A DNA stretch of 54,428 nt, taken from positions 1 to 54,428 of IMG/VR virus record IMGVR_UViG_3300020122_000519. The stretch is one strand, 5' to 3'. The first letter of the stretch is position 1. The number at the start of each line of letters is the position of its first letter. A program made the position numbers and the translations under genes. Source of the stretch: a virus. Its lineage: Duplodnaviria > Caudoviricetes. The notes under the pieces were generated by a model. The model saw only the letters and a list, made by a program, of their open reading frames with translations, made no database searches and had not been told where the DNA came from. Of this stretch, positions 13,673-36,651 are shown in pieces.

Positions 13673-13891
13673 TCAAGTGCGCTTGGGTGGGAGCCCCCAC
13701 TTCTCCTCTAACTCCTTGATACCATTGCTCAAGATGAGCCTGATCAGGTCCGACTCGTCGACCTGGCGGTGATTGGCCAAGGCCTCGAGCCGCTCCTTTA
13801 TCTCGTGGGGCACGCGGACGACGAGGTTCCCCATCGGCTTCCGCTTCTTCTTCCTGAGACCCGCCTCATCGGCGTCGTCGATTGGCGCCAC
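13673..13891 (-). CDS. Ribbon-helix-helix (Arc/CopG-like) regulator, candidate immunity repressor
   Basis: LVVRVPHEIKERLEALANHRQVDESDLIRLIL; first leftward gene at the divergence point; start uncertain. Confidence 0.75.
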   Translation of the reverse strand: MAPIDDADEAGLRKKKRKPMGNLVVRVPHEIKERLEALANHRQVDESDLIRLILSNGIKELEEKWGLPPKRT

Positions 13892-13971
13892 AGCCAAACC
13901 TCGCACGTGAGTTGACCTCGATTCTTTAGGCGGCAACGCGCCGCATGGAAAGAACAATGCCACAGCCAAGC

Positions 13972-14030
13972 AGTAATCGCAATGCGTACGCTTGCGTACG
14001 TTGACAAACGCAATGCGTTCGCATTACTAT
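13972..14030 (+). promoter_or_regulatory. Rightward sigma70-type promoter with overlapping operator repeats
   Basis: TTGACA (14001)-18 nt-TACTAT (14025); CGCAATGCGT(A/T)CGC at 13978 and 14009; TGCGTACG at 13983 and 13993. Confidence 0.75.
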
Positions 14031-14060
14031 TCTCTCCATCAACGATTGGGGAGGCAGCAA

Positions 14061-14279
14061 ATGGCGACCCGGAGCGAAGCGGTTGAGGTTGTGATGAGCC
14101 CGGAGGTGACGGTTCGCAGGCAGAAGGCGACGAAGGCCTTCTTGAACAAGCTCGTGCGGCTGGGCGCAGTGGCTCCGCCGACCTCTTGCGGTGAAGAGAC
14201 GCTCTGCCCGGACGACCGCATTCGCCCGTGCGTCAAACCCCATGGCCACGACGGGTGGCACGACGCGGGGGTTCGCTAA
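14061..14279 (+). CDS. Hypothetical early protein
   Basis: GGGAGG RBS; first rightward ORF; C...C..PHGH...H tail. Confidence 0.6.
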   Translation: MATRSEAVEVVMSPEVTVRRQKATKAFLNKLVRLGAVAPPTSCGEETLCPDDRIRPCVKPHGHDGWHDAGVR

Positions 14280-14600
14280 ATGAGCGCGCCCAAGTTCACG
14301 CCGGGCCCGTGGCGTGTCGGCCCGTCTCACGAAGAGGGCTCGTGTGAGTACATAGACCACGGCATCTATACGGCGGGGAGCGTCGCGGTCCTCTATTCAA
14401 CAGAGGACGGCAGCCACGAAACCAGAAGGGCCAACGCCGCCCTCATCGCCGCTGCTCCGGAGCTGTACGAGGCGCTGCGCGAAGTTAAGTCTGCGCTGGA
14501 AGACCATCTCTTGGTCCAGCCGAATTCGGCGTTCGCCGATGCCGGACGCGACCTCGTGTCGAAGATCAACGCCGCTCTCGCCAAGGCGGAGTGCCGCTAG
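14280..14600 (+). CDS. Conserved-type phage hypothetical protein
   Basis: FTPGPW...ANAALIAAAPELYEAL pattern common in phage early genes. Confidence 0.75.
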   Translation: MSAPKFTPGPWRVGPSHEEGSCEYIDHGIYTAGSVAVLYSTEDGSHETRRANAALIAAAPELYEALREVKSALEDHLLVQPNSAFADAGRDLVSKINAALAKAECR

Positions 14601-19597: not shown

Positions 19598-20044
19598 GTG
19601 GGAAAGAAGAATGGGGACGAGAAGAAGCAGCAGCAGCCTGAAGTCTTGAAGACCATCACCGAGGCCTTGCCTGTCGCGCTGACCGACAAGCAGCGGTTGG
19701 AGATCGGCTTGGAGTTGGCGCGGGCGGAGGGGGAGATCGCCGACCACGACACGCGCTCGAGCGAGGTGAAGCAGGGACTCAAGGCCAAGGAGGCGGAGAT
19801 CCGCGCGCGCATCAGCCAGCTGTCCACTTCCTTGCGCAATGGCCAGAAGTTCCAAGACGTCCAGGTCGACATCGTCGCTGACTTCGAGTCGAACCGGGCG
19901 CGCTACGTCCGCCAGGACACGGGCGAGGAGGTTCGCAACCGCGCCTTGGACGCCTCGGAGCGCCAGGGCCTGCTCCTGCCGGAAGACGAGGGCGAACTGG
20001 AGGAGGCTGAGCTGCCGAGCGGAGTGTCGCGGGCGGAGGAGTGA
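19598..20044 (+). CDS. Hypothetical phage protein (coiled-coil)
   Basis: Strong RBS; R.DTGE.V..R motif. Confidence 0.7.
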   Translation: MGKKNGDEKKQQQPEVLKTITEALPVALTDKQRLEIGLELARAEGEIADHDTRSSEVKQGLKAKEAEIRARISQLSTSLRNGQKFQDVQVDIVADFESNRARYVRQDTGEEVRNRALDASERQGLLLPEDEGELEEAELPSGVSRAEE

Positions 20045-20184
20045 TGCTCGGCCGCATCCTCTGCGTCTTCGGGCTGCACCTGGCGCCACCGGGCATCAGC
20101 ACGAAGCTCAGCGTCTTCTTCGAGTGCGCGCGCTGCCGGGCGCTCGTGCCCGGGGACTGGCACCGGAAGGAGTCGAGGCGGTGA
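20044..20184 (+). CDS. Small Cys/His prophage protein (DUF1660-like)
   Basis: MLGRILCVFGLH...CARC. Confidence 0.55.
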   Translation: MLGRILCVFGLHLAPPGISTKLSVFFECARCRALVPGDWHRKESRR

Positions 20185-21890
20185 AGGAGTCGGCACCGCT
20201 CACCTTCGCCGCGAAGGGCCCCGGAGTCCGCGTGGACTTGAAGAAGCTCGTCGAGTCCCGCGCGCTGGTGCAGGCGAACAGCGGGGGCGGCAAGTCGTGG
20301 CTGCTCAGGGCGCTCCTCGAGCAGACCTCCGGGCGCGTGCAGCAGTTCGTCTTCGACCCCGAGGGCGAGTTCCACACGCTGCGCGAGCGCTTCGACTACG
20401 TCTTGGCGGCCAAACACGGTGGGGACGTCGAGGCCTCCGCGCATACCGCTGCGCTCTTGGTCCGCCGGCTGATGGAGATGAACGTCAGCGCCGTCTTTGA
20501 CCTCTACGACTTGTCGAAGGACGAGAAGCGGGAGTTCCTCCGCCGCGCCCTGGTGGAACTGATGAATCTGCCTCGGGAACTGTGGCGGCCGGTGCTGGCG
20601 GTGGTGGATGAGATCCACGACTTCGCCCCCGAGGCCGGCCACGGCGAGGCCCAGTCGCTCGACGCGGTCCGCGACACCGCGAGCCGCGGGCGCAAGCGAT
20701 TGGTCTGCCTGGTGGGAGCGACGCAGCGGCTGGGCAAGCTCAGCAAGGACGTGGCGGCGGAGTTGATCAACAAATTCGTGGGGCGCACCTCGCTGGACGT
20801 GGACTTGAAGCGCGCGGTGTCTGAGCTTGGGATGAGCCCGAAGGAGGGCGGCCCCGTCCTCCGCTCGCTCGGGGCTGGCGAGTTCTACGCCTACGGCCCG
20901 GCCATCTCGAACGAGGTGGTCCTGGTGCGCGGGCCCACGCCAATCACCCGGCCACCGAAGGTGGGCGCGGCCGCGAAGGCTCCACCGCCTGCACCGGAGA
21001 AGGTGCGCGCGGTGTTGGCCCAGTTTGCAGACTTGCCCAAGGAGGCGGAGGAGCGGGCGCAGACGGTCGAGGCGCTCCAGAAAGAGGTCCGCGAGTTGAA
21101 GCGGAAGCTCAAGGAAGCCCCGAAGGCGAAGGTGGAGATCAAGGAGGTCCCGGTGCTGAAGGAGAAGGAGTTGAAGCGGCTGGAGAAGGTGGCCGAGCGG
21201 TTGGCGGCGGTCTCGTCGGAGGCGAGCGCGGCGGCGCAGGCGATTGTAGCGCCGCTAAAGGCGTTCTCAGGTCACTCCTCGTCGCTGCCGCTCGCGTTGC
21301 CTCGGATACCTGTTCCCGGGGAGATCGGCAGGACCAGGGCGGCGCCGATGATCGCCCAGGGGAACAACGGGACCGTCGCCCGCATCAACCATCCCCCGTC
21401 CAGCTACGTCGCGGTCGACGCCGCCGGGGTAATCGGCAAGGGCGAGCGCAGGGTCCTCGCTGCGGTAGCCCAGCATGAGCATGGCGTGGACCGCGTCCAA
21501 CTCTCCGTCTTGACTGGCTACGCCCGATCCAGCCGCGACACCTACCTCCAGCGCCTCCGGGCCGCCGACTTGGTCTGTGAGCGCGGAGACGCGATCTTCG
21601 TCACTGAGAAGGGGAAGGCAGAGCTCGGGAGCGACTTCACGCCGTTGCCCACCGGGGACGCGCTCCGCGAGTACTGGATGCGCTCGCTGCCGGAAGGTGA
21701 GCGCCGAGTGTTGGAGAACGTCGCGGGGCAATGGCCCGGCGAGGTGACTCGGGACGCGGTATCCGAGGCCACGGGTTACGCCCGGTCGAGCCGAGACACG
21801 TACCTCCAGCGACTCTCGGCGCGGAAGCTCGTCGTCACCAGCAAGGACGGTGTTCGTGCGTCGGACATGCTCTTCGATGGTGGACAATGA
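20181..21890 (+). CDS. HerA/FtsK-like ATPase with tandem C-terminal winged-helix repeats
   Basis: ANSGGGKS, FDPEGEF, VVDEIH, RGRKR, ATQR; TGYARSSRDTYLQRL occurs twice. Confidence 0.85.
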   Translation: MKESAPLTFAAKGPGVRVDLKKLVESRALVQANSGGGKSWLLRALLEQTSGRVQQFVFDPEGEFHTLRERFDYVLAAKHGGDVEASAHTAALLVRRLMEMNVSAVFDLYDLSKDEKREFLRRALVELMNLPRELWRPVLAVVDEIHDFAPEAGHGEAQSLDAVRDTASRGRKRLVCLVGATQRLGKLSKDVAAELINKFVGRTSLDVDLKRAVSELGMSPKEGGPVLRSLGAGEFYAYGPAISNEVVLVRGPTPITRPPKVGAAAKAPPPAPEKVRAVLAQFADLPKEAEERAQTVEALQKEVRELKRKLKEAPKAKVEIKEVPVLKEKELKRLEKVAERLAAVSSEASAAAQAIVAPLKAFSGHSSSLPLALPRIPVPGEIGRTRAAPMIAQGNNGTVARINHPPSSYVAVDAAGVIGKGERRVLAAVAQHEHGVDRVQLSVLTGYARSSRDTYLQRLRAADLVCERGDAIFVTEKGKAELGSDFTPLPTGDALREYWMRSLPEGERRVLENVAGQWPGEVTRDAVSEATGYARSSRDTYLQRLSARKLVVTSKDGVRASDMLFDGGQ

Positions 21891-24730: not shown

Positions 24731-24760
24731 AAAGGGCCCATACCCCGATGGTATGAGCCC
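24729..24760 (-). terminator. Intrinsic terminator ending the late operon
   Basis: - strand GGGCTCATACC-ATCGG-GGTATGGGCCC-TTTTT at the convergence point. Confidence 0.8.
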
Positions 24761-24813
24761 CAACCCCGTCGCTGTGCGGTCCACTTGCACCGGCCTACTT
24801 TTGGCGAAGGCCG

Positions 24814-24949: not shown

Positions 24950-25477
24950 TCAGAAGTCGAGCGCGAGGACCGGGTGGAGTTCGACGCCGTTGGGCGCGAC
25001 GCCCGTCTGCCCGTGGAGCTTGTCGAAGAACGCGACGCCCGTGACGGTGACGGGCTTGGGTGTGCGCAGCTTCTTGAAGGCCGCCCCCACGCGCATGACT
25101 TTGAGCAGGGCGTGCCGCGCGGCGAGCATCTGCGCGGCCTGCTCCTTTGGGGCCCCGTCCAGACACCTCGGGGAGGGGACTTCGACGATCATCGTCTTCG
25201 AGGTGTCCGCCGGGTCCGCGATGACGACGTGGAAGTCCTGGTCCGCTTCCAACTTCGCGCCGATGAGCACCGCTTTGACTCGGTACACCACGCGCTCCGC
25301 CTGGGCCCTCGGTGCGTCGTCTTGCCAGGCGGGAGCGCCGTAGGCGCGGAGCTGCGTGACAGTCGCGTCTACTGGGTGTGAGAAGTCGATGGAAGTCGCG
25401 GCGGGGTCGGAGAGGGTCTTCACCGCCCACCTCTCCGTCCCACAGCCGAGAGCCAGTGCGAGCAGGGCGGCGATCAT
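24950..25477 (-). CDS. Exported protein / lipoprotein, probable OB-fold
   Basis: MIAALLALALGC lipobox-like, CGTERWAVKT, EADQDFH, TGVAFFD...ELHPV. Confidence 0.75.
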   Translation of the reverse strand: MIAALLALALGCGTERWAVKTLSDPAATSIDFSHPVDATVTQLRAYGAPAWQDDAPRAQAERVVYRVKAVLIGAKLEADQDFHVVIADPADTSKTMIVEVPSPRCLDGAPKEQAAQMLAARHALLKVMRVGAAFKKLRTPKPVTVTGVAFFDKLHGQTGVAPNGVELHPVLALDF

Positions 25478-26268
25478 GCGGGCGTCGTCCAGGCTTCAGA
25501 CCAGCAGAGCGGCAGATACTCGAGCGGCATGAGGCAGTACCCGTCGAGCCCCCACGACGGGCCCCAGGAATTCTTGCAGAGGACGTACTTCTTGCCGTTG
25601 AGCGTGAGGTAGCCGGGACTGCACAGGCAGTGCCCACCGAGCACGCCTTCCTTGCTCGTGTCGGGCATGGGGACGATTCCGTCCGCGCCGGTGCTCTCAA
25701 AGCTCGCAAACACGGTGAATCCGAAGACCACGGGCTTGGGCTCGGCGAGCACGGCCAGGACGTTGTCCGGGTTGGTGTAGTCGACCTGCTGAGGCAGTCC
25801 GCAGCGGTACGGCTGCGCGGCCACGTCGCAACCCGAATTCGGCGCCTGGGACGGGTCTCCGGTGTACGGCAGCCACGTCTCTGGGCAGGTGCCCCACTTG
25901 TAGAGCGTGGCCATCGTGTCCGCCACGGAGGCGCCGGCGTCGGCGGGGAAGGTCCCCTCTGCCATCCGGGTGCGGGCGTAGATGTAGGCCGGGGATAGGT
26001 CTCCGCCGAGAGGGGTCGAGCTCTTCCCCCACAAGGCGCAGTTGATCTCCTTGAAGGCCGCCTCCCCGTGCCCCGTGCAGCTCCCTTCCTGGCCCTGGTC
26101 GCGGACAGGGCGGCAGAGCGGGCGCATGTCGACGCTGTCCGGGAGCTGGACCGCCTTGGGTTCGTACTTCGGTGCGGCCTTGAGGAGCCAGTGGTCTGCG
26201 GGCGGCGGCCGGTAGTCGTACCTCCGGCCGAGGACTGACTTCGCGGGCTTCGGCATGAGCATCGTCAT
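25474..26268 (-). CDS. Papain-like (C1A) cysteine protease
   Basis: PDSVDMR, DQGQEGSC (Q, C), GGHC (H), KNSWG (N). Confidence 0.9.
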   Translation of the reverse strand: MTMLMPKPAKSVLGRRYDYRPPPADHWLLKAAPKYEPKAVQLPDSVDMRPLCRPVRDQGQEGSCTGHGEAAFKEINCALWGKSSTPLGGDLSPAYIYARTRMAEGTFPADAGASVADTMATLYKWGTCPETWLPYTGDPSQAPNSGCDVAAQPYRCGLPQQVDYTNPDNVLAVLAEPKPVVFGFTVFASFESTGADGIVPMPDTSKEGVLGGHCLCSPGYLTLNGKKYVLCKNSWGPSWGLDGYCLMPLEYLPLCWSEAWTTPA

Positions 26269-27047
26269 CACCAGGCCCCGAAGTAGATGGTGTTCCCGCG
26301 GAGCACCGCCGCACCCTCGGCGCTCTTGGTGGGCAGAAGCCCGAAGTTGATGGAGAGGTGCCCACCGACGAAGTAGCCCTGCCCTGCCGGCAGGATGCCG
26401 CCACCGCCGTCCAACAGGTGCTTGCCCACGGAGAGGCACACCAGCGAACTCAGCGTGCACAGCCCCAGCGCGCCGGAGAGCTCGCCGAACTCTTGGCCGG
26501 AGTTGGAGGTGACGCGGGTCCCGAAGGCCATCAGCGCCAGGTCGAACATGTCGTACGTGCGCCCGAAGAACTGCCCCTCGAGCCGGGTGTCTGAGAACGA
26601 GACTTGGAGCCCCGCCCCGGCGAGGACCTGGACCGGGTTGGGGTTGGCGCCTAGGTCCACCAGCACCATCGGGAAGGTCGGCCCCAGCTGGTAGGTGACG
26701 TCCGCGCGGGCTTTCCCCGGGGCAAGAAGAGCGGCCGCCAGAGCGATGGCGACGAGAGCCTTCGCGGCGCCCCCGCCACTTTGGATTGGCGATGGCTTGG
26801 CGTGGTCGGGGGTGAGCGCGAGTGTGTTCAAGAAGCTGCTCTTGCAGAGCGCGTCGAGCCAGGCTGCGGCGTAGAGCAGCTCCCCGTCCGCCTTTTTGAG
26901 CGACGGGAAGAACTTGACCAGGATGGCCGTGCCCTTCTCGAGGGCCTTGATGAGGAAGGACGCCGCGGCGACGACGCCCAAGACGGACGCGACCAAGCCC
27001 TGCCAGTTCTGCTGCACGAAGACGAACAGCGAAGAGATGAAACCCAT
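26268..27047 (-). CDS. Membrane protein: holin-like N-terminus, internal signal peptide, beta-barrel-like C-terminal domain
   Basis: TM helix GLVASVLGVVAAASFLI; KALVAIALAAALLAPGKARA|D; alternating amphipathic strands. Confidence 0.65.
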   Translation of the reverse strand: MGFISSLFVFVQQNWQGLVASVLGVVAAASFLIKALEKGTAILVKFFPSLKKADGELLYAAAWLDALCKSSFLNTLALTPDHAKPSPIQSGGGAAKALVAIALAAALLAPGKARADVTYQLGPTFPMVLVDLGANPNPVQVLAGAGLQVSFSDTRLEGQFFGRTYDMFDLALMAFGTRVTSNSGQEFGELSGALGLCTLSSLVCLSVGKHLLDGGGGILPAGQGYFVGGHLSINFGLLPTKSAEGAAVLRGNTIYFGAW

Positions 27048-27052
27048 GTCCT

Positions 27053-27622
27053 TCAACCTCCTGTTGGTGGTGCTGCTTGCGACATCTGCGCTTGGACCCA
27101 GCCGACGACGTCCGCGAGGACGATGCTGGACCCCGGACAATCTCGATGGGTGGTGGCTGGATCCTGATGGTGTAAGCGGAGCGTGGACGGCTCGAGTCCT
27201 GCGGCGCGGTGGAGCGTGGCCAGGCCTGAGGCCAGGTTCGCGCGCATGCCTTCGGGGAGCTGCTCGAGCGAGAAGTCGCCGATCATCTCCACGCCCCAGG
27301 ACACCGCGTTCCAGCTCGGGGAGTGGACCCCGGGCGCGGTGAGTGGGGTGAAGACCCAGATTCCTTCAGGCTCCACGAAGAGGTGGGGCCCGGCGTGCCA
27401 CTTGAGCTCGTCCCGGTAGTACTTGACGAAGCCGCGCATGTGCGAGTCGCCCGGGAAGTCGGGCCAGAAGTCCCGGCCCGGCACGCGCACGGAGAGCGTC
27501 GGGTCGTAGGAGTTGTGGAGGACCACGAAGCTCGGGCGCCAAGCGGTGATTGTGAGACCGCGCACGTAGGCGTCGAAGTCCGCAGCGCTGAAGCGCTTGC
27601 AGATAGGCGTGGTCCAGGGCAT
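27053..27622 (-). CDS. Endolysin, N-acetylmuramoyl-L-alanine amidase (Amidase_2/PGRP-like)
   Basis: VVLHNS, PHLFV, GVH...N..SWGVEMIGDF, LHH...CPG. Confidence 0.85.
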   Translation of the reverse strand: MPWTTPICKRFSAADFDAYVRGLTITAWRPSFVVLHNSYDPTLSVRVPGRDFWPDFPGDSHMRGFVKYYRDELKWHAGPHLFVEPEGIWVFTPLTAPGVHSPSWNAVSWGVEMIGDFSLEQLPEGMRANLASGLATLHRAAGLEPSTLRLHHQDPATTHRDCPGSSIVLADVVGWVQAQMSQAAPPTGG

Positions 27623-27823: not shown

Positions 27824-28046
27824 GAGTAACGCGCTTCGCAGCGTCCCGCGCCGCGCGGATTTGGATCTCCCACCGGCCGAAGAGAAATGGGATGCCTTCC
27901 GCTGAATGGAGGTGTCGAAACTTCCTCCGCCACAGTCGCCCCTTGAAGTGCTCGAGCGCTGCGCCTGCGGCGAGACCGACGAGAAGGATTTCGACGCCGA
28001 GGAGGGCGTGCTCCCAGGTGAGCGCGGTCCAGTCGATGATGGCCAT
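27792..28046 (-). CDS. Small membrane protein
   Basis: Hydrophobic helix followed by a basic tail. Confidence 0.5.
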   Translation of the reverse strand: MAIIDWTALTWEHALLGVEILLVGLAAGAALEHFKGRLWRRKFRHLHSAEGIPFLFGRWEIQIRAARDAAKRVTHDRTTKRVEL

Positions 28047-28049
28047 GCC

Positions 28050-28406
28050 TCACCCCCCATCGGTCGGAACCTTTCCGAATGGACGAGTCTCTTCGCGGCG
28101 GTAGAGCTCGAGCTTCTGGTGCGACTCGCGGAGCATCTTGGCGAGGTCCTTCAGGTCGTCAATCTCGCCCTCGATGAACGCCACGCGCTTCTCGAACGCT
28201 GCCATTCGGGCTGCGTCTTGGCCGCGCTCGCGGGCTTGAAGGTCGAACTTGGCCTCCAGCCTGGCGATGGAGATGCGCAGTTCTTCGACGGCGGCAACCA
28301 AGTCTTCGCGGCCATCCATCCGCAAATGGATGCGACGCAGCTCGCCCCGAATCTCGTTGAGGGTGGAGAGCAGAGGGTCATTGACCACTGGCGTCTTGTC
28401 GCTCAC
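28050..28406 (-). CDS. Coiled-coil protein
   Basis: GTGA-coupled and heptad-rich. Confidence 0.6.
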   Translation of the reverse strand: MSDKTPVVNDPLLSTLNEIRGELRRIHLRMDGREDLVAAVEELRISIARLEAKFDLQARERGQDAARMAAFEKRVAFIEGEIDDLKDLAKMLRESHQKLELYRREETRPFGKVPTDGG

Positions 28407-28645
28407 GGTTTGCCCTCGAGCTTCTTGAGCTTCTCTTCCAACTCGGCGATCCGCGCGTCCTGCTTGCGGTTGTAGTTCCACAAGCCCTTGGTCTCGAGGA
28501 AGAATCGGGCGATGTACCCGACCGCCACGATGATGGCGGCGATGGCGCTGAAGATCCTGCCCAGGTCGGCCCCGGCGAAGACACCGGCCATGAGCACCGG
28601 GAGGCCGATTCCGGTCCCGGCCGACTCCACCATTCGCGGAGACAT
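28403..28645 (-). CDS. Holin-like membrane protein
   Basis: Two hydrophobic segments and a charged C-terminus; first gene of the lysis block. Confidence 0.5.
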   Translation of the reverse strand: MSPRMVESAGTGIGLPVLMAGVFAGADLGRIFSAIAAIIVAVGYIARFFLETKGLWNYNRKQDARIAELEEKLKKLEGKP

Positions 28646-28692
28646 ATGGAATTCCGAAGGTCTCAAGGCTAGGTGTAGTGGCAGATCAGGAC

Positions 28693-30531
28693 TTACGGCT
28701 GCTGCTCGAGAGTCCAAGTGACCGAGTTGGCGGTGCAGGTAGCGGTCACGCAGCACAGGTGGAGCTGGATCGTCCCCGCCGCAGAGGCGTAGCAGCTCCA
28801 GGTGGCCCCGCCCGCGCTTGTTGGCGTCGAGTGTGGCGAGACGTAACAAGGTACGTCCACAAGCGAACCCGGAGTCGTCTCGGCAGTATCAGCGCAACCC
28901 GTGGACGCTGGCACGGTGGTGGCGGCTGTGATGAACTTGTGCGCGCCTCCGATGGTGCCGAACTGAATGTTTTTGTCGCTGCCGACATCGGTGTACTTGA
29001 TGTTTGATGTGCAACTCGGGTCTTGGCAGATTTGAGCAGTCGTCCCGCCCACGAGGTTGTTGATGGCGCCCGAAGCGAAATAGGTGCTCGCGGGTCCTAT
29101 GATTTTGAGTCCGAACGTTCCGCCGTCCCCCTGGTTGGACGTCATGTAGAGGTAGTTGTTCGGTTCGAGCAGGATGCCCGTGGTCGCGCCAGCGGCGCCC
29201 TCAAAGTCACTCGAGGCGATGAGTGCAGAGGTTCCGATGCTTGCGGCGATGGTGCCAGAGGTGTTTGCGTTGCCTATCGCGACTCCCACCTGGGTGAAGC
29301 CGTTGATAGTGTCGTCGAATTCGGAGAAGAGGCGAACGCCGATCAAGTTGTAGCCGGTGCGCACGCCGTGCGTGTACATGCTGTTCAGCCCGGAAATCAG
29401 CTCGGCTGGCCCAGGCACGTACGACAGTCCGTCGTACATGATGCACCCGGAAGATGCGTCGATCTTCCCCGAGACGTTCCCGGTTATCAGCGCTGTGTGT
29501 CCAGGGTAGGCGTCGATTCCGAAGAGACAATTCCCGCCGAAGATGGTGTTGCTGAAGAGACTCATCCTCCCGACGTTCTGCCAAGTGGCGAAGGCCTCAA
29601 ACCCGGCGGTGTTCGAGTTCCACCTGAGATGAACTGCATCGGAGTTGGCGGCGTAGAAACTACTGTTGGACGCAGCATCGTTGAAGTCGAAATTCGTGAA
29701 GGCTACCGGGGCCTGAGGCGAGCAATAACCGTTCGCCTCGTTCCCCCCGAGCGTGAAAGCCCCGGTCTGAGCCTCACTCCGCATGCCCGATATGATTATC
29801 CCGGCGGAGTCGTTCGCCTGCCCCGAATAGGAGCCCATCAGTCCGGTGGGGTTCGGGCCGTTCGGGATGGCGCAATCGGTCGTGATGTGCGTCGCGTTGG
29901 CGAGGATGGCGAACGTGCTGGCATTTGTCGGCAATGTGTACTCTGCGAAGGGCGAGCAAATTGGCGTGATGATTTGCATCATCGGCCAGAAAGCCGTGCT
30001 TCCGGAGTAGCCGCCCGCCAGCGTGAGGACCGTGGCAGTGTTTGAGGCGATGACCAATGTCTCTCCAGCGCCTGGGCCGGCCGTGACCTTGAACAAGAGT
30101 CCGCGCAGGGCATTGGTGGTCCACCCCGCGCCGGTAACTGTCACCGTAGGCAGCACGCCAGGCACGTTCGTGATGTCTGTCGCGCTCGCGACGGTGCCCG
30201 TCTGAGCGCCGGTGATCGACGCTGCGGCGGTCGCGCCGTGTACCCAGAGCGAACCGTAGGAGCCGGATGCATAGTCAGACGAGAATGTGAATCCGTCCCA
30301 CGTGGAACAGTTGAAGTTGCCCGCTCCCACCGAGACCTCGATCGGGTGGTCGACGTACTTCGGGATCGAGCGCTCTGCGGCCTGCATCGCCCCCGCGCCC
30401 TGACTTGAGCTGACCGAGATGACCTGAGCGCCAGTGGTAGTCCCGACAGGAGAGGGGATGGGCGAAGGGAGGACCTGCGCCAACGCGGCGCTCGCCAAGA
30501 GACTGGTCGCAACGGAGACTCTCAGCGACAT
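28693..30531 (-). CDS. 612-aa tailspike/adhesin-like protein with a Sec signal peptide
   Basis: MSLRVSVATSLLASAALA|Q; G/T/S/N-rich beta-helix-like body; many Cys. Confidence 0.7.
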   Translation of the reverse strand: MSLRVSVATSLLASAALAQVLPSPIPSPVGTTTGAQVISVSSSQGAGAMQAAERSIPKYVDHPIEVSVGAGNFNCSTWDGFTFSSDYASGSYGSLWVHGATAAASITGAQTGTVASATDITNVPGVLPTVTVTGAGWTTNALRGLLFKVTAGPGAGETLVIASNTATVLTLAGGYSGSTAFWPMMQIITPICSPFAEYTLPTNASTFAILANATHITTDCAIPNGPNPTGLMGSYSGQANDSAGIIISGMRSEAQTGAFTLGGNEANGYCSPQAPVAFTNFDFNDAASNSSFYAANSDAVHLRWNSNTAGFEAFATWQNVGRMSLFSNTIFGGNCLFGIDAYPGHTALITGNVSGKIDASSGCIMYDGLSYVPGPAELISGLNSMYTHGVRTGYNLIGVRLFSEFDDTINGFTQVGVAIGNANTSGTIAASIGTSALIASSDFEGAAGATTGILLEPNNYLYMTSNQGDGGTFGLKIIGPASTYFASGAINNLVGGTTAQICQDPSCTSNIKYTDVGSDKNIQFGTIGGAHKFITAATTVPASTGCADTAETTPGSLVDVPCYVSPHSTPTSAGGATWSCYASAAGTIQLHLCCVTATCTANSVTWTLEQQP

Positions 30532-30680
30532 GGGACCTCCTTCACAGTCTTCCCGTCAGGTTGGAGCACGTGGCACGTGGCCGGGGGCGGCTGCTTCGGA
30601 GGAGGGGGAGGGACGGGCTTCTTGGGCTTCGCCGCGGCGCAGGCGACGAGCAGGAGCAGCGACAGGACGAGGTTCCTCAT
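30522..30680 (-). CDS. 52-aa Pro-rich putative lipoprotein
   Basis: MRNLVLSLLLLVAC lipobox; GGAGG RBS; coupled on both sides. Confidence 0.6.
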   Translation of the reverse strand: MRNLVLSLLLLVACAAAKPKKPVPPPPPKQPPPATCHVLQPDGKTVKEVPCR

Positions 30681-31126
30681 TGCTGTCCCGCCTCCACAGT
30701 CATGAGGATTCCGCCATCCCAACTCCCACCGGAGCAGGTGACGCCGCTGCTGGCGTAGAGCCACCGGCCGAAGGGCTGGGCGACCTGGAGTTCGGGCCCC
30801 ATCGAGTACGCCGCCCCAGTCGGGAAGGTGAAATTCGCGTAGGTCGGCGCCGCCACCCAAGATGCTTGAGCCGGCGAGTAGTAGTAGCCGACCGCGCTCC
30901 CAGCCGTGAATGTTGAGGAGTCCGAGCACTTCGCGAGGGCGTGGAAGCTGATGGTGCCGCCCAGAGAGAAGCCCTGGGTGGCGGAGTTGGGGGCCGCGCG
31001 GGTGCCCGCTTGCACCTCGGTCCAGATGATTTGAGCCAGGGGGCCCGTCCACACGGCCGCGTAGGCCGCGCTCAGGGCGAACCCCAGCGTCGCGGCGAGC
31101 GCCGCGAGGAGTCTTTTAGGTGACAT
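30677..31126 (-). CDS. Secreted beta-rich protein, apparent paralog of 46164-46700
   Basis: MSPKRLLAALAATLGFALSAAYA|A signal peptide; shared ordered motifs. Confidence 0.7.
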   Translation of the reverse strand: MSPKRLLAALAATLGFALSAAYAAVWTGPLAQIIWTEVQAGTRAAPNSATQGFSLGGTISFHALAKCSDSSTFTAGSAVGYYYSPAQASWVAAPTYANFTFPTGAAYSMGPELQVAQPFGRWLYASSGVTCSGGSWDGGILMTVEAGQQ

Positions 31127-31181
31127 TGGAGTACCTCTCGTTACGTGGTTTGGCTTTTGTGCGGCTTCGGCCTATTCAGTC

Positions 31182-31688
31182 GTGATGCCGAAGCGTCGTC
31201 CAATTGCTGATCGCTTCTGGGAGAAGGTCGACAAGAACGGCCCGACGATGCCGAACATGGACACGCCTTGCTGGCTGTGGACGGGTCGCCGAGACGCCAA
31301 TGGCTACGGGCGACTTCCTATTCGAAACGGCAGGGCGCGGAGGCCCACTCTCGCGCATCGCATTGGATTCGAAGTGCAGGGCGGGGTCTTGACTACCGAG
31401 AAACCCAACGTGCTGCATCATTGCGACAACCGGGTGTGCGTCAGGGGCGACCATCTGTTTCCCGGGACGCCGTACGACAACAATTTCGACGCCAGAACCA
31501 AGGGTCGAGCGCGTTGGGCTAATGGAGAGACTCATGTTCGCGCCAAGCTGACGGCCGAAAACGTGCGGGAGATCAAAAAGCTGCTCGCTGAGGGGAGAAC
31601 GCAAGCCCAGTTGGCTGTGCTCTTTGGTGTGACACCGGCAAACATCTGGAAGATCGCCTCTGGGAACGGTTGGCGTTCGCTTGGTTAG
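31182..31688 (+). CDS. HNH homing-type endonuclease with C-terminal HTH
   Basis: RFWEKV...CWLWTG...GYG...AHR...HHCDNRVCV...HLF.GT..DN. Confidence 0.9.
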   Translation: MMPKRRPIADRFWEKVDKNGPTMPNMDTPCWLWTGRRDANGYGRLPIRNGRARRPTLAHRIGFEVQGGVLTTEKPNVLHHCDNRVCVRGDHLFPGTPYDNNFDARTKGRARWANGETHVRAKLTAENVREIKKLLAEGRTQAQLAVLFGVTPANIWKIASGNGWRSLG

Positions 31689-31739
31689 GGACTGAAACAT
31701 CGTTCAGTTGAGGATCGGGCTCGGAAGGGGAGACGATTC

Positions 31740-32090
31740 GTGATGCGCGGGCAGGGGTCGCTCCCTATGCCTCGTCACCTCGGCGAGGCGCCCGCGGCAG
31801 TCACAAAACCGAGGAGCGATGCGAGGATCGCTGTGCAAAACCAGAAACTGTCGTCTTACGTCGCTGATGCCGTGTCGAAGGGCTGGCGACTGGAGCAGCA
31901 AACGGACTCGTCCGTTTCGCTCCTGGTCGGTAGGCCCACCAACCATCTCCTGCACTTCTTCATCGGCGTCTTCACCTGCGGCCTGTGGTGGGCGGTGTGG
32001 TTGATCATCGGGCTGACAAACAAGCAGGAGCGCATCTTCGCTTCGATTGACGAAAGCGGAGAGGTCAAGACGACGCGGGTTGCGATATGA
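31740..32090 (+). CDS. Membrane protein (moron-like)
   Basis: NHLLHFFIGVFTCGLWWAVWLII; antisense to the late operon. Confidence 0.7.
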   Translation: MMRGQGSLPMPRHLGEAPAAVTKPRSDARIAVQNQKLSSYVADAVSKGWRLEQQTDSSVSLLVGRPTNHLLHFFIGVFTCGLWWAVWLIIGLTNKQERIFASIDESGEVKTTRVAI

Positions 32091-32620
32091 AGCCCGCGCT
32101 GACGAGGCCTGCGCTTGTTCTCGTGGTTGCCGCAGGCTGTTTCGGCTGCGGTGGGCAGAACGTCTTCTTCACTTGCCCGTCGTCCCGCTTCCAGATGGTG
32201 TCGTCTGACCAACCGCTGGACTGCCAAAAGTTCGCTCACAACGAGGAAGCGGCCTTCTCCTTGCTCGCCCAGCGCGGGATCGTGCCCGAGAGCAGCTGGC
32301 ACGACTACCAACGCGTCTCGGTGCTCTACCAATTCTCCTGGCTCGTACACGCGCGGCCCGGTTGCGTCGCGTGCGGCGTCGTGCCTCGAGACATCGACCT
32401 CTACGAGCCCAACAGCATCACGATCTCCAGCGGTGGCGAGGCGCTGCTCCATTCGATGCTTCATCACTGGGATTACATCCACGGCCGCGTCGACACGATG
32501 TTCCATCCGAGTTGGTGCGAGAAGGGCTATGGGCAGGTCGACAGCTGCCCTGGTTCGGCGGATGACGTGTACCAAAAGACGATGGTGGAGGACCTCACCG
32601 AGCCTGACGGTGGGCGTTAG
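32087..32620 (+). CDS. Putative lipoprotein with a degenerate zincin-like motif (moron-like)
   Basis: LVLVVAAGC lipobox; ALLHSMLHH. Confidence 0.6.
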   Translation: MKPALTRPALVLVVAAGCFGCGGQNVFFTCPSSRFQMVSSDQPLDCQKFAHNEEAAFSLLAQRGIVPESSWHDYQRVSVLYQFSWLVHARPGCVACGVVPRDIDLYEPNSITISSGGEALLHSMLHHWDYIHGRVDTMFHPSWCEKGYGQVDSCPGSADDVYQKTMVEDLTEPDGGR

Positions 32621-33504
32621 AAGGTCTCGAAGCTGATACCATCCAACTGGACCGTGTCTCCATTGTTTGCAACTACCACTTGCACATCCCCACCGGTCGT
32701 CACGACCACACCGGCCACCACTTGGGCGGAGCCGTTGAAGCAGGCGTATTGTCGCGTGGAGGGCGGACGAAATCCCGCCGGGAGGTTGAAGGCGGCGAGG
32801 TACGTGGTCGCCGTTGCTCGCGACACGTTGCCGCTGACATACGTCCGGCCGTTCGAGTCCCGATAGTAGCGGGGCGTCGTGGATCCAGCCGAGAAGCTGT
32901 TGAGGAAGGACGAGATGTTGGTCGGTCCGGACTGCGCCTGCACCTTGGCGGTCGCGCCGTTGATCCTCGCCGAGAACGTGTTGTTGCTCGAGTCGACCCA
33001 CGTGTCCCCGTTGGCGGGCGCGCTGGGGGTGACATGGGGGACGAGGTTGAACGCTCCCACCACCGGGCTGGCGTGCTGATGCTGGGCCTGCATCGGCCAG
33101 GCGTTGACGTCCTGGCTGCCGCCGTAGATGCCAACGCCGCCCGCTCCTGCGCCGGACTGGGCGATGCCGGACGTCCCGAATCCCCCCGCGCCGGAAGCCC
33201 CTCCAATCACTCCGGCGTAGCCCGCGCCGCTCGCGGTGGCGTTGATGACGTTCGATCCGGACCCGGTCGCAGATATCGCGCCGCCGATGGCCGCGCCGAC
33301 GGTGAAGGTCTGCGTCGCCGTCCAGGTGTTCGCCGTGGAGAAGATGGCGATGACGAAGTTGACCAGGCGCTGCGCGTAGTCGGTGAGGAGTTGGAACGCG
33401 GAGGCGAATGTCGCGCCGTTGTCCAAGTCAGCATCCGCAGGCTCGCTGATGGTGACGGTGTTGGAGGCCGCGTTGGCGGGGTTGCCGGTATATGAGCTTG
33501 GCAC
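32617..33504 (-). CDS. Tail fibre protein
   Basis: Follows the baseplate genes; ANTWTATQTF, Gly-rich shaft, LPAGFRP...LDGISF C-terminal domain. Confidence 0.8.
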   Translation of the reverse strand: MPSSYTGNPANAASNTVTISEPADADLDNGATFASAFQLLTDYAQRLVNFVIAIFSTANTWTATQTFTVGAAIGGAISATGSGSNVINATASGAGYAGVIGGASGAGGFGTSGIAQSGAGAGGVGIYGGSQDVNAWPMQAQHQHASPVVGAFNLVPHVTPSAPANGDTWVDSSNNTFSARINGATAKVQAQSGPTNISSFLNSFSAGSTTPRYYRDSNGRTYVSGNVSRATATTYLAAFNLPAGFRPPSTRQYACFNGSAQVVAGVVVTTGGDVQVVVANNGDTVQLDGISFETF

Positions 33505-33516
33505 CTGATCTGACTC

Positions 33517-33975
33517 CTAGAGATGCGCCCACCGCTTGCGATGGACGATTCTCGAAATTGCCGACTGATGTACGGAGAATGCTCTCGCGACTGCGCCCTG
33601 GCTCTCTCCGCCGAGTATGCGCTTTCTGATCGCGAGCACGTCTTCGTTCCGGAGTCTGCTCATGCCGTGGCTCGCGCCTCTCGACTGCCGGCCCTTCGAG
33701 GTCTTGTCCGCCATGTTGTCGGATATCGTTCCGAGGAACATGTGCGCCGGGTTCACGCAGAGCCTGTTGTCGCACGAGTGGCAAACGCAGAGGTCGACCG
33801 GAATCGCCCCGTTGGTCAGTTCCCACGCCATCCTGTGGGCGTATGCCGGTTTCCCGTTTCTCCAGATGACGCCGTAGCCGACATGCCATCTCGTGCCGGA
33901 CCAAACGAGACAGCCGGTCTTGTCGTCCTTCTTCGCCTTGGACCAAAAGCGATTCTGGATCGGGATCTCTTTCAT
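33517..33975 (-). CDS. HNH homing-type endonuclease with C-terminal HTH
   Basis: RFWSK...C.VWSG...GYG...AHR...CHSCDNRLCVNPAH.F.GT..DN. Confidence 0.9.
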   Translation of the reverse strand: MKEIPIQNRFWSKAKKDDKTGCLVWSGTRWHVGYGVIWRNGKPAYAHRMAWELTNGAIPVDLCVCHSCDNRLCVNPAHMFLGTISDNMADKTSKGRQSRGASHGMSRLRNEDVLAIRKRILGGESQGAVARAFSVHQSAISRIVHRKRWAHL

Positions 33976-33980
33976 GAGCT

Positions 33981-34946
33981 TTAGTTGGCCGGCGGCGTCC
34001 AACTCGTCACGGACGCGCCGCCCAAGATTCCGTCTGTCGAAGAGCCCAGGCCGCGGATCGGGTAGCCCACGAGCTTGCCCGTCTTGAGCACGGAGATGCT
34101 CGAGCACACCGTGCTTGCCTTCTTCCAACTCTTGAGCACCTTGCGGAAGCGCGCAGCGTCTTGGCTGGTGTCCGTCGGCGGGACTTGAGACACGTAGTAG
34201 CGGTCACCAGAGGTAAAGGTGCCAGAGGCGGTGAATTGGGTGCCCGACACAGGGTTGTTGCCGATGCTGTTCAGCGTTTGCGGTGAGCCGAAGGTGATGC
34301 CGCCGTCCGTCGAGACGGCGTACTGAGCTGTGCCAGTAGCCCCGCCCGTGGTGATTTTGATGCACAACTGCACGTCAGGACTGGCGATCCCGACGAACCC
34401 GCTGAGCGTACCGGAGCCCGTACCGACGTGGATGGGCGAGGTCCAGTTGGAGGAACCCAGCCACGCGGCCGGGTAGGGGTGGTCCACGATGATCGAGAAC
34501 GCTGACCAGAAGGATAGGTTCCAGTTGGGGTAGGCTGGATTCCAGCTCTTGTTGGTGCCGATGGCGGTGATGACGAGCGCGCCACTCCCGTTCAGGCTGA
34601 ACTTCGATCCCCGCTGCATCAGGAAGACGTCCTGGTAGCCCATCGAGAACAGCTGGGAGAGGATGCCGAAGGCGGTCCCGCCGAAGACCCAGGCGTCCCA
34701 CGCCTGCTTGAGCCGCAGGGCGTAGGCGGTACTCGACTCGTTGACGCCCTGGATCAACCCCCGCTCGTTGCCGATGGCTCCCAGCGAGTCCGCCGCGGCG
34801 TACTGGGGGAAGCGCTGAACCACCGCCGCGCGCGCCTGGCTCGCCAGGAAGTCCTTCACGATCCCGTAGGCCCTGGTGAAGGACTGGCCGTATGCGCCTT
34901 GCAGCGCGATCGGCATCAGCGCCGGCTGTGCGTCACGGTAGCCCAC
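33981..34946 (-). CDS. Baseplate wedge protein (P2 gpI / Mu gp48-like)
   Basis: Position; LGAIGNERG...ES...Y..RL..AW; carries the ITTGG/STDGG domain. Confidence 0.7.
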   Translation of the reverse strand: MGYRDAQPALMPIALQGAYGQSFTRAYGIVKDFLASQARAAVVQRFPQYAAADSLGAIGNERGLIQGVNESSTAYALRLKQAWDAWVFGGTAFGILSQLFSMGYQDVFLMQRGSKFSLNGSGALVITAIGTNKSWNPAYPNWNLSFWSAFSIIVDHPYPAAWLGSSNWTSPIHVGTGSGTLSGFVGIASPDVQLCIKITTGGATGTAQYAVSTDGGITFGSPQTLNSIGNNPVSGTQFTASGTFTSGDRYYVSQVPPTDTSQDAARFRKVLKSWKKASTVCSSISVLKTGKLVGYPIRGLGSSTDGILGGASVTSWTPPAN

Positions 34947-34947
34947 T

Positions 34948-36651
34948 TTAAGTCACGATGTACGAGACGCCGGCCAAGTTGAAGGCGACGACGTTGCCAG
35001 AGGGCAGCTGCGTGTCCGTGTTCGGCGCCGGCACGGTCAAGAAGACCTCCGTCACGCCCGCCTGCTTCTGGTTGAGCGCGGCCTCGATGTCGCTCCAGTG
35101 GACGACCCCGCCGATTGGAGTGGCGCGCTGCAAGGCCGTGAAGGCCGCCGACACCGCGCCCTGGACCGCAGCCAACGACTGTGCCGGGCAGAAGACTTGC
35201 GCGGTGATGGAGAGCGTGTCGGTGACCGCGTTCTGGATGGAGAGCAGCTCGCAGACGCCCAAGCGCTGCTGGACGTAGGTGGTGATGTTGGCGAGCGCCG
35301 TCGCCGAGATGGGGCCGTTGATGCCGGCCAAAACGATGTCCACCTGCCCCGCCACGGTTCCGTCGGCGCCGATCTGCGTCTGGGAGACCTCCGAGCCGCC
35401 GTTGGGCGCCGTCCTGCACAGGTAGTCGAACGTCGCGTCGGACCCGCCGCCCACGCCGATCGCGCTCCACTTGTTCTCGTCTCGCGCCTGGAGCGCGGGG
35501 TCGCTCTCCTGGTCGAGGCCCGGGGTCAGGATCCAAGAGGCGTAGGAGGTGAAGCTGTAGGTGTCGGTCGCGGTGAAGCTGTTGGCGAGAGTGAGCGTCA
35601 GGCCCGTCGAGCCCAAGCCGTTGAGCAAGGGGATGGGGTAGCTCCCGCCGCCCGGGATGGTGAAGGGGGAGGCGTAGTTGTTGCCGCCGTCCAGGCTGAT
35701 CTGGAGGACGCCCGCGCCGAGTCCCCCGGTGGTGACCACCTTGACCACCACCGAGTAGTTGCCGTTGGGGCTCCCGGACACTGCCACCGTCCCCGCCCCG
35801 CCGCCGCTGTGGGAGACGGAGCTGGTGCCCGGGGCCGGGTTGTTCGCGGTCAGCCCGGGCTTGGGGGTGAGGAGGATGGTGAGGGTGCCGTTCTGGACGT
35901 TGTACGCCGCCCCGGGCTGGATGGCCGAGAAGGGCAGCGAGACGGTGGTGCCGGGCGAGATGGTGGTGCCCGTGGTGTTGGAGAACTGGTAGGCGTTGAC
36001 CCCGCCGCCCGCGGTGTTGGCGACGATGATGTCGCCAGGGTTGATGGTGAGCGGAGAGGCGCTCGCTGAGAGGGTGAGCGAGACCAAGCCCGAGGTCGCC
36101 CCGGGGTTGAAGCGCTCGTTCTCGTAGAGCTGGTCCGAGAGCAGGGTGAGCCAGCCGCCCGTGGCGTACTGCACCAAGCCCCCGCCGGCAATCCCCGGGA
36201 TGGCGTTGCCCGACAAGTCGGCGAGCGTGGTCGCGTCCGCCTCGACGAGCGTGCGAGCTGCGCCGCCAGACTCCCAGTCGTTCACCGGGAATGGCGGGAA
36301 GACCGTCTGGAAGAGGTACTGGTCACCCACCGCGAAGACGCCCGCGAACTGGAGCCTCACGCCGGAGCCGGAGATGACGTAGGTTCCGTTGCTCGGGACG
36401 GTGAAGGGCCCCGAGTAGGTGTTCCCGTCGTCCAAGCTGTACTTGAACGCCGCGGTGCCCGGGCTGCCACCTGTCGTGATGACGATGATGACGTCGTAGG
36501 AGTTGACCGGGGCGCCCGAGGCCACGACGGTGCCCGCGCCGTTGCCTACTTGCTGCATCGGCCCGATGCCTTGGAGGGTCTCCAAGAGCAGTGCCTTGGC
36601 CTGGTCCGCCGTGACGGGCGGCAGGAGGGTCGCGAGGGTGACGAGGGCCAT
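34948..36651 (-). CDS. Baseplate J-like protein
   Basis: ATGGWL, PGAAYN, GLDQESDPALQAR; two ITTGG/SLDGG-type domains. Confidence 0.85.
   Translation of the reverse strand: MALVTLATLLPPVTADQAKALLLETLQGIGPMQQVGNGAGTVVASGAPVNSYDVIIVITTGGSPGTAAFKYSLDDGNTYSGPFTVPSNGTYVISGSGVRLQFAGVFAVGDQYLFQTVFPPFPVNDWESGGAARTLVEADATTLADLSGNAIPGIAGGGLVQYATGGWLTLLSDQLYENERFNPGATSGLVSLTLSASASPLTINPGDIIVANTAGGGVNAYQFSNTTGTTISPGTTVSLPFSAIQPGAAYNVQNGTLTILLTPKPGLTANNPAPGTSSVSHSGGGAGTVAVSGSPNGNYSVVVKVVTTGGLGAGVLQISLDGGNNYASPFTIPGGGSYPIPLLNGLGSTGLTLTLANSFTATDTYSFTSYASWILTPGLDQESDPALQARDENKWSAIGVGGGSDATFDYLCRTAPNGGSEVSQTQIGADGTVAGQVDIVLAGINGPISATALANITTYVQQRLGVCELLSIQNAVTDTLSITAQVFCPAQSLAAVQGAVSAAFTALQRATPIGGVVHWSDIEAALNQKQAGVTEVFLTVPAPNTDTQLPSGNVVAFNLAGVSYIVT

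Follow-up and report, generated by a model that had tools for sequence, protein, structure and literature searches.

A tailspike-type protein with a predicted Sec leader in a three-gene cluster of a contractile-tailed phage

Introduction

Tailed-phage particles are built inside the cell, and their depolymerases and receptor-binding proteins are regarded as cytoplasmic. What, then, is a tailspike-type protein doing behind a Sec-type leader? The question is raised by three minus-strand genes at 28693-31126 of the IMG/VR virus record IMGVR_UViG_3300020122_000519 (Duplodnaviria; Caudoviricetes). The whole record, 54,428 bp with ~65% G+C, is the window analysed here; it is a complete virus record and has direct terminal repeats. 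A preliminary description of this DNA had held that the three genes are coupled and lie between tail fibre and lysis genes, that all of their products carry export signals, and that these products fold and form disulfides in the periplasm and join the phage particle at lysis.

Exported late phage proteins are already known, including XepA, secreted endolysins and spanins, and Llp, Cor, Lom and Bor are further exported phage proteins. Exported tailspike-like enzymes are also known from bacteria, as with WceF. Full-text literature searches, with most subscription journals outside their coverage, gave no account of a tailed phage whose tailspike-type protein carries a Sec leader.

Our analysis indicates that the three products very likely leave the cytoplasm. 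What they do afterwards is less certain. We tentatively read the cluster, at somewhat under an even chance, as an exported accessory set that folds in the periplasm and acts on the envelope when progeny exit, and not as parts of the particle assembled in the cytoplasm.

Results

Three overlapping genes with predicted export signals

The cluster comprises three open reading frames (ORFs), listed here in gene order together with the elements at the start of the largest, including its Shine-Dalgarno (SD) motif; lengths are in amino acids (aa) and AF2 denotes an AlphaFold2 model.

30677-31126, minus strand: 149-aa protein predicted to be exported, with a Sec-type leader and an all-beta jelly roll (ORF, SD motif)
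30522-30680, minus strand: predicted 52-aa lipoprotein precursor with a lipobox (ORF, sequence)
28693-30531, minus strand: 612-aa predicted exported beta-helix protein of tailspike/depolymerase type (ORF, AF2 model, fold searches)
30536-30543, minus strand: SD motif GAAGGAGG of the 612-aa gene, 4 nt before its ATG and inside the end of the 52-aa gene
30478-30531, minus strand: predicted Sec signal peptide of the 612-aa protein (codons 1-18), MSLR followed by VSVATSLLASAALA, with cleavage between ALA and Q

All three ORFs are present as first described. The 149-aa and 52-aa genes share 4 nt at their stop and start codons (ATGA), the last 10 nt of the 52-aa gene are also the first of the 612-aa gene, and the three are predicted to be translationally coupled. 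The SD-like motifs are, in gene order, GAGAGG, GGAGG and GAAGGAGG, the last being the strongest. Its presence at the start of the 612-aa gene supports the start codon and, with it, translation of the leader.

The N-termini of the 149-aa and 612-aa proteins both have the basic n-region, uncharged h-region and small residues at -3 and -1 of substrates for Sec and signal peptidase I. In the 149-aa protein the leader (residues 1-23) follows the textbook Sec-type n-h-c pattern, with MSPKR, 14 uncharged residues and cleavage between AYA and AV. The 612-aa leader (MSLR, VSVATSLLASAALA, then ALA before QV, with 14 uncharged residues) is regular but the weakest of the three, and in the AF2 model it forms a detached, low-confidence helix at residues 3-12. 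The 52-aa protein starts with MRN and LVLSLLLL and has a lipobox, L-V-A-C, whose Cys14 comes after MRNLVLSLLL.

Leaders were called by reading the sequence, by conservation among homologues and with a crude leader classifier run at several thresholds. Hydrophobic N-termini of unrelated sequence are present in 5/5 members of the 149-aa family and, likewise, in 5/5 close members of the 612-aa family (P0001-P0005). For the distant relatives of the 612-aa protein, a census of 153 sequences was reduced to 142 by dropping 11 that were shorter than 350 aa or had no initial Met. Depending on the threshold, 75-78 of these 142 full-length relatives pass the leader test (84 in a looser earlier version), compared with 1/659 to 38/659 (0.2-5.8%) of the controls, which were internal Met-initiated segments. 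The figure of 75-78 is a floor, as several obvious leaders are missed by the crude test. Leaders therefore seem to be kept as a feature while the sequences around them diverge, and the earlier claim of export signals on all three proteins, two of Sec type and one lipobox, stands.

Could the hydrophobic N-termini be something other than export signals, namely the result of wrong starts or assembly segments of cytoplasmic fibre proteins? The weak leader of the 612-aa protein would suit such an explanation, as would the leaders of P0003 and P0004, which have no basic n-region, and that of P0002, which is long enough for an anchor. In addition, M49 of the 612-aa protein is invariant in the close homologues and could in principle be an internal start. 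However, the SD-like run before M49 is poor, whereas strong SD motifs are found at the annotated starts in the window and in two phage loci with homologues, L002 and L003, implying that the hydrophobic N-termini are translated. Textbook leaders (MKK...AFAQ and similar) also stand at the N-termini of many 612-aa relatives, and the enrichment over the controls is more than 10-fold. Because of the SD motifs and the conservation we consider this explanation very improbable, and export of the cluster proteins very likely.

A tailspike-type body directly behind the leader

The remainder of the 612-aa protein can be divided into three parts.

28972-30432, minus strand: right-handed parallel beta-helix body, ~residues 34-520 (VIA-align, Foldseek)
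29992-30198, minus strand: inserted module at ~residues 112-180, GTVASAT...TVTGAGWT..LRG...GPGAG...SNTATVLTL, shared with most distant relatives
28696-28965, minus strand: C-terminal Cys-rich module, residues 523-612, with seven of the 14 Cys

The AF2 model was built from a 94-row alignment, with a predicted local distance difference test (pLDDT) of 75 and a predicted template modelling score (pTM) of 0.75. In it, a detached helix at the N-terminus precedes the beta strands, which begin at residue 36, and the C-terminal beta domain stands apart. By VIA-align, the highest Z scores are 21.1 (7chu), 20.9 (alginate lyase 6kfn) and 20.0 (Vibrio RbmB, 9ozl), followed by AlgE epimerases at 18-19, AlgE4 among them, and many phage tailspikes at 16-18. 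Foldseek places the phi297 gp61 and LKA1 gp49 tailspikes on top (E 1e-9 to 1e-8, probability 1.0), and in BFVD viral depolymerases rank first. The body is thus modelled as a right-handed beta-helix of depolymerase/tailspike type, in agreement with the fibre- or spike-like features reported earlier, whose motifs GWTTNALRG, GPGAG and IASNTATVLTL are found at residues 136-171. The protein has no family in Pfam, including its beta-helix and pectate-lyase models, PHROGs or NCBIfam, and a profile of four close homologues gave one chance-level match and nothing else against the PDB sequences.

The tailspike depolymerases (phi297 gp61, LKA1 gp49, Sf6, HK620, AP22 gp54 and Klebsiella K1 lyase) are the best Foldseek matches as a group (E 1e-9 to 1e-6, Z 16-18); they share with the 612-aa protein a beta-helix of similar length, a small C-terminal beta domain and a gene next to fibre genes. 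They begin with a particle-binding domain, lack a signal peptide and form trimers in the cytoplasm, whereas the 612-aa protein has a Sec-type leader and 14 conserved Cys. The secreted beta-helix lyases and epimerases (6kfn, RbmB 9ozl, AlgE4) have the highest Z to the body and are secreted or periplasmic monomeric enzymes. However, they are products of cellular genes, are without the C-terminal knob and the GAGWT insert, and are only 10-13% identical. The pectate lyases of plant pathogens are likewise exported by Sec and are disulfide-bonded before secretion.

All VIA alignments begin at model residues 33-37. From the predicted cleavage after residue 18 to the start of the helix at ~34-37 there are ~16 residues, and these are not conserved among the close homologues. 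As this leaves no room for a particle-binding domain, the N-terminal adaptor is missing from the protein as modelled. Among distant relatives without a leader, the N-terminus is either very short or forms a conserved helical segment of INxAWxxL type, which suggests that leader and attachment segment are alternatives. By comparison, the 295-aa tail fibre of the same phage has a conserved, signal-free N-terminus that is common to Myxococcus phage Mx4 and to L003. The earlier proposal that the 612-aa protein is a virion part fares poorly here, as neither a particle-binding domain before the helix nor a conserved N-terminus of fibre type was found on it.

The inserted module is the widest-ranging part of the protein. 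An exhaustive HMMER search returned 296 proteins at E<=1e-3, most of them ~480-520 aa long and matching query residues ~40-180, and the motif of the module was confirmed in 133 stretches of viral contigs. A module of ~50 residues with the pattern W-T-x-N...GTGxGQ...SNTA also occurs in a large, uniform family of ~480-aa phage proteins that start with MATTNGNRKILDLKRWE, and this family fills most of the 80 viral loci among the matches listed (L006-L083; e.g. L024 2900-4339). The module appears to be a widely shared building block of phage surface proteins. The 612-aa family profile found only 3 weak loci in genome contigs, too few to tell a cellular from a viral family.

The C-terminal module is predicted to be a mobile domain. 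P0006, P0007 and P0008 match residues 517-610 at 39-62% identity; the module ends other beta-helix proteins (P0006, P0008) and stands alone behind a leader in the 107-aa P0007. Its structural neighbours in the Atlas, viral proteins and tail-fibre-type C-termini, are leads only.

There are only four close homologues of the 612-aa protein, with identities of 63, 57, 53 and 44%, and all 14 of its Cys, the many Cys of the first description, are invariant in them. In this phage, Cys makes up 31 of 1240 mature residues in six signal-bearing proteins and 65 of 7746 in 23 signal-free ones (2.5% vs 0.84%, odds ratio 3.0, Fisher p 3e-6). This threefold density is consistent with folding under oxidising conditions beyond the cytoplasm.

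The two small proteins

The AF2 model of the 149-aa protein (pLDDT 77) is an all-beta jelly roll after the leader. Four relatives were found among 5.8 billion proteins, and a related phage encodes one more; the family has two invariant Cys, and a SWDGG...E..QQ motif is conserved at the C-terminus. The protein has no family in Pfam, PHROGs or NCBIfam. Among 48,161 representative chains the best matches of the model are YomS (6i5o, Z 8.7) and XepA (6i56, Z 8.6), with a root-mean-square deviation of 3.5-3.8 over 100 residues; the next match has Z 7.7, and Z ~8 can reflect a common arrangement. The L003 homologue of the 149-aa protein is 49% identical and has a canonical leader of different sequence, beginning with MKKVFLGLLLLAGAAALAQS; its start lies 10 nt downstream of the fibre stop codon and is preceded by an AGGAG motif.

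XepA, the 'PBSX exported protein', is described in the accessible text of PMC6834076 as appearing after induction, being exported beyond the membrane and being absent from mature particles. The same text places it in the PBSX system for host-cell lysis, along with the putative holins XhlA and XhlB and the amidase XlyA, and YomS next to the tail-protein cassette of SPbeta (PMC6834076). Like the 149-aa protein in our reading, they are exported late proteins beside tail and lysis genes. They differ in that no sequence similarity to the 149-aa protein is detectable and that they come from the 'lytic cassettes' of Bacillus subtilis prophages and thus from a monoderm host. XepA furthermore has two domains and forms pentamers, and no beta-helix partner has been described for XepA or YomS.

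Another leader-bearing protein is encoded elsewhere in the window. The 178-aa P0159 (46164-46700, minus strand) has a textbook Sec leader, MKKKLLLTTVFALGLAGGALA with cleavage before GD, and its gene directly follows the major capsid gene, the usual place of decoration proteins. A homologue in a related phage (L171 1498-2049, 37% identical) has its own leader and occupies the same place. Several short motifs of P0159 are reminiscent of the 149-aa family; homology was not established, the hhalign probability being 4% for the single sequence and 21% for profile against profile.

The mature part of the 52-aa protein is 39 aa long and proline-rich, with a PPPPP stretch and two further Cys. No Pfam or NCBIfam family was found for it, and its PHROG matches, to the Rz-like spanin families phrog_812 and phrog_3198, are weak (E 5e-3, residues 4-34). 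A penta-proline stretch is described for Rz1 in the accessible text of PMC6139136. Given this stretch and the weak Rz-like matches, a role as outer-membrane spanin (o-spanin) is plausible, and the protein has the small size and proline-rich lipoprotein character of that class.

This raises the possibility that the 149-aa and 52-aa proteins together are an ordinary two-component spanin, an inner-membrane spanin (i-spanin) with an uncleaved anchor and an Rz1-like o-spanin, and that only the 612-aa protein is unusual. The 'separated' architecture of spanins is matched by the gene order, the sizes and the small overlap, the 52-aa protein lies by the lysis genes as Rz1-type proteins do, and no other spanin candidate was recognised near the amidase gene. 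On the other hand, the 149-aa protein has a canonical AXA cleavage site, and its periplasmic part, modelled as an all-beta jelly roll, is not helical as in an i-spanin. The accessible part of PMC6139136 lists >120 i-spanins without a predicted coiled coil, so that a spanin-like function may still be accommodated. The PHROG matches of the 52-aa protein cover mainly its leader and proline run. In L003, the one relative with context, the 149-aa homologue is followed by a signal-bearing 233-aa protein and no 52-aa homologue or other lipoprotein was seen there. We consider the spanin explanation unlikely; it is compatible with the reading of the 612-aa protein as an exported free enzyme.

Gene contexts of the relatives

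Usable synteny is at hand for one close relative only, and the contexts of more distant ones were added to it. L003 is a related myophage whose baseplate J protein is 68% identical. Its genes follow the order fibre, leader-bearing 149-aa homologue, leader-bearing 233-aa Cys-rich protein, 712-aa protein and small transmembrane (TM) proteins. The 712-aa protein is pectate-lyase-like, with a CBM5/12 domain and without a leader. The 233-aa protein (13877-14578, plus strand) has a Sec-type leader, and no family was found for it. By BLASTP, neither the 712-aa nor the 233-aa protein is significantly similar to the 612-aa protein.

In L094, an unrelated myophage, a small leader-bearing protein comes directly before a leader-bearing beta-helix protein, and the pair lies between neck and sheath genes; the small protein matches the 149-aa family with an hhalign probability of 84% (E 7e-6). 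In L088 a leader-bearing 145-aa protein and two large leader-bearing proteins come after replication genes, and L092 has three large leader-bearing proteins in tandem. In L091 and L096 the shared Cys-rich C-terminal module is part of a protein whose gene neighbours encode a helicase, a Thg1-like enzyme and an RNA ligase. Taken together, these contexts indicate that genes of the 612-aa type are phage-borne, often paired with a small exported protein and not confined to tail modules. The leader census shows leader-bearing proteins of this kind to be widespread, recurring in many uncultured phages. That relatives also reside beside replication and RNA-repair genes, and that XepA is absent from particles in the accessible text of PMC6834076, both count against virion membership as first proposed.

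Place of the cluster in the phage genome

PHROG and Pfam scans of the window proteins show the layout of a contractile-tailed phage with its structural genes on the minus strand. The features around and beyond the cluster are as follows.

52497-54386, minus strand: portal
47278-48246, minus strand: capsid (major capsid gene), with neck genes next in order
42054-43781, minus strand: sheath, with tape measure next in order
34948-36651, minus strand: baseplate W and J
33981-34946, minus strand: I-like protein
32617-33504, minus strand: signal-free tail fibre, 295 aa (PHROG minor tail and structural families; tblastn matches in L003 and Mx4)
31182-32620, plus strand: island with a 168-aa HNH endonuclease, a 116-aa one-TM protein (phrog_34413) and a 177-aa lipoprotein with 8 Cys
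28403-28645, minus strand: holin-like 80-aa protein (two hydrophobic segments, short coiled coil)
27053-27622, minus strand: endolysin, an N-acetylmuramoyl-L-alanine amidase (Pfam Amidase_2, E 8e-8; PHROG endolysin)
24733-24761, minus strand: 12-bp hairpin followed by a T-run, the strongest stem of the region
12507-13571: integrase

The integrase, together with RecT, exonuclease and replication genes also encoded, shows that the phage is temperate. Its closest cultured relatives are distant: the sheath is 38-41% identical to those of Thermus and Meiothermus phages and 35% to that of Mx4, and the identities to Mx4 are 35% for baseplate J, 32% for the I-like protein and 36% for the N-terminus of the fibre. 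No signal-like N-termini were seen among 17 translated Mx4 proteins, including those after the Mx4 fibre. Baseplate J had weak matches in only 2/401 Acidobacteriota genomes. Neither the 612-aa nor the 149-aa protein had a tblastn match in 50,697 GenBank phage records, and blastn of window positions 28000-34000 matched two short HNH stretches and nothing else.

Two further genes of the window call for comment. A 683-aa protein on the early strand (19839-21890, plus strand) weakly matches a PHROG of terminase-large-subunit type (E 5e-14), but the true terminase is encoded at 375-1799, and the 683-aa product is probably some unrelated ATPase or nuclease. Between the I-like and fibre genes (33517-34128, minus strand) there is another HNH endonuclease, with a helix-turn-helix tail; its longest ORF shares ~150 nt with the end of the I-like gene, so that the true start is probably later.

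The cluster was first described as lying between tail fibre and lysis genes. TM proteins and an endolysin do follow downstream, whereas on the fibre side the plus-strand island of 1.4 kb intervenes. At the equivalent place in L003, where the 149-aa homologue abuts the fibre gene, the island is absent; it looks like a later insertion and is likely cargo expressed in the lysogen. Downstream, the 612-aa stop is 47 nt from the start of the holin-like gene. A gene for a 118-aa coiled-coil protein overlaps the holin-like gene (both within 28050-28645, minus strand), its GTG at 28406 sharing 2 nt with the holin-like stop codon and suggesting translational coupling, and a gene for an 84-aa one-TM protein comes next. 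The 80-aa, 118-aa and 84-aa proteins have no match to known holin or spanin families. Beyond the endolysin, the last products of the late unit (24950-27140, minus strand) are a 290-aa protein that has three hydrophobic segments, a Peptidase_C1 protein of the papain family (E 3e-13) and a 175-aa lipoprotein; a cysteine protease downstream of an endolysin is unusual. The hairpin at 24733-24761 is the probable end of a long minus-strand late unit containing the cluster; no strong hairpin lies between the two, although the overall count of terminator-like sites is not above that of shuffled sequences.

In a temperate phage, exported proteins may also be cargo of lysogenic conversion (morons), here surface or periplasmic factors made from the prophage, for example for superinfection exclusion or matrix remodelling. 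The G+C content at third codon positions (GC3) would agree with this, being 0.78 in the 612-aa gene and 0.91-0.95 in core structural genes, as would the opposite-strand island, which cuts the cluster off from the tail genes so that it needs its own promoter or read-through. Known precedents are Llp of T5 and Cor of phi80 and N15, small lipoproteins that are encoded beside receptor-binding genes and act as exclusion factors, and that resemble the 52-aa protein by description only; lom and bor of lambda are exported morons near tail genes. However, the cluster genes overlap one another and share a strand with the structural genes as well as the holin-like and endolysin genes immediately downstream, pointing to membership in the late operon. 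The L003 homologue of the 149-aa gene is coupled to the fibre gene, and the equivalent pair in L094 is set among structural genes. A promoter scan found 0 sites, a weak point in that the consensus was of E. coli type and may not suit the host. Because of the tight coupling to late genes in three phages, we regard lysogenic cargo as improbable.

Discussion

Given the above, the cluster may be an export cassette within the late operon of a temperate myovirus. The 149-aa and 612-aa proteins would leave the cytoplasm by way of Sec and signal peptidase I and the 52-aa protein as a lipoprotein. The signal peptide of the 612-aa protein would take the place of the usual N-terminal particle-binding module, and the protein would fold in the periplasm with up to seven disulfides. 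From its fold, the product is predicted to bind and probably to cleave glycans. As a free enzyme it may then target the envelope or the extracellular polysaccharide of the host itself, and it would be released at lysis. It may serve to clear matrix for escaping progeny, to destroy receptors on the dying cell and on cell debris, or to do both. The 149-aa protein would be its exported jelly-roll partner in the manner of PBSX XepA and SPbeta YomS, and the 52-aa protein would be a small outer-membrane lipoprotein of Rz1 type, either an o-spanin or a receptor-masking lipoprotein. A complex prediction of the mature 612-aa and 149-aa proteins scored 0.00 in two runs without controls and carries no weight either way.

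A bacterial enzyme provides a precedent for a tailspike fold working outside the cytoplasm. According to the accessible text of PMC7949094, WceF of Pantoea stewartii (6TGF) is a trimer with a tailspike-like fold that is exported by Tat and cleaves the producer's own exopolysaccharide (EPS). Compared by description, it demonstrates that tailspike-type architecture can function as a free enzyme in that location. WceF differs from the 612-aa protein in being chromosomal and part of an EPS operon, in its Tat signal, by which it is exported folded, and in keeping a P22-like head-binding domain.

Several observations weigh against an exported accessory set. The body with its C-terminal knob has the appearance of a virion tailspike. 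The 612-aa leader is moderately hydrophobic (best 10-residue Kyte-Doolittle mean 1.85), and the protein passes the leader classifier only at the loosest threshold. The likeness to XepA and YomS is one of fold only, at borderline Z, and neither protein is listed when the 149-aa family profile is run against the PDB sequences to E 10. Periplasmic folding with disulfides, as first proposed, agrees with the export signals and with the Cys density in this phage; in the distant family, however, Cys number is equal with and without a leader (median 6 vs 6.5-7, p 0.12-0.21), and the link between Cys and export is weakened as a general rule. Finally, two gene contexts would suit a spike. In L003 the slot equivalent to the 612-aa gene holds the signal-free 712-aa pectate-lyase-like protein. 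In L002, a different phage, P0003 (57% identical and the closest 612-aa homologue having gene context) lies directly behind a BppU_N baseplate-type gene at the end of the tail module, and a second leader-bearing paralogue, 32% identical over residues 42-216, likewise comes after that gene.

The tailspike-type fold with its knob and these two contexts would be at home in an extracytoplasmic step of virion maturation, in which the 612-aa protein, and perhaps the 149-aa protein, fold and become oxidised in the periplasm and dock on finished particles at lysis, once holin and endolysin have let the compartments mix. The predicted mature starts of the 612-aa and the L003 233-aa proteins are alike (AQVLPSPIPS and AQTIPTPSPT), which is not significant alone, and the leader-bearing P0159 after the capsid gene, conserved in a related phage, adds a little. 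Fibres and decoration proteins of model phages such as T4 can join particles in vitro. Opposed to it are the few unconserved residues before the helix, the apparent replacement by the leader of the attachment helix borne by signal-free members, the relatives outside structural modules and the signal-free fibre that this phage already has. The reported absence of XepA from particles (accessible text of PMC6834076) points the same way. We consider docking of this kind unlikely. Rather unlikely, too, is a general two-compartment assembly in which the secreted spike, perhaps along with the 149-aa protein and P0159, is oxidised in the periplasm and joins cytoplasm-built particles at lysis.

If the exported accessory set is the right reading, a tailspike-type enzyme with a Sec leader in a late operon would mean that some phages secrete free, disulfide-hardened glycan-degrading enzymes for exit or exclusion; otherwise it may mean that some particles are finished outside the cytoplasm. 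In either case, not every beta-helix protein encoded beside a fibre gene should be annotated as a virion part, and searches for depolymerases may have to consider that periplasmic expression could be needed for activity. The cluster would also give XepA and YomS a possible counterpart in phages of diderm hosts, and it bears on how phages are released from matrix-rich soil bacteria.

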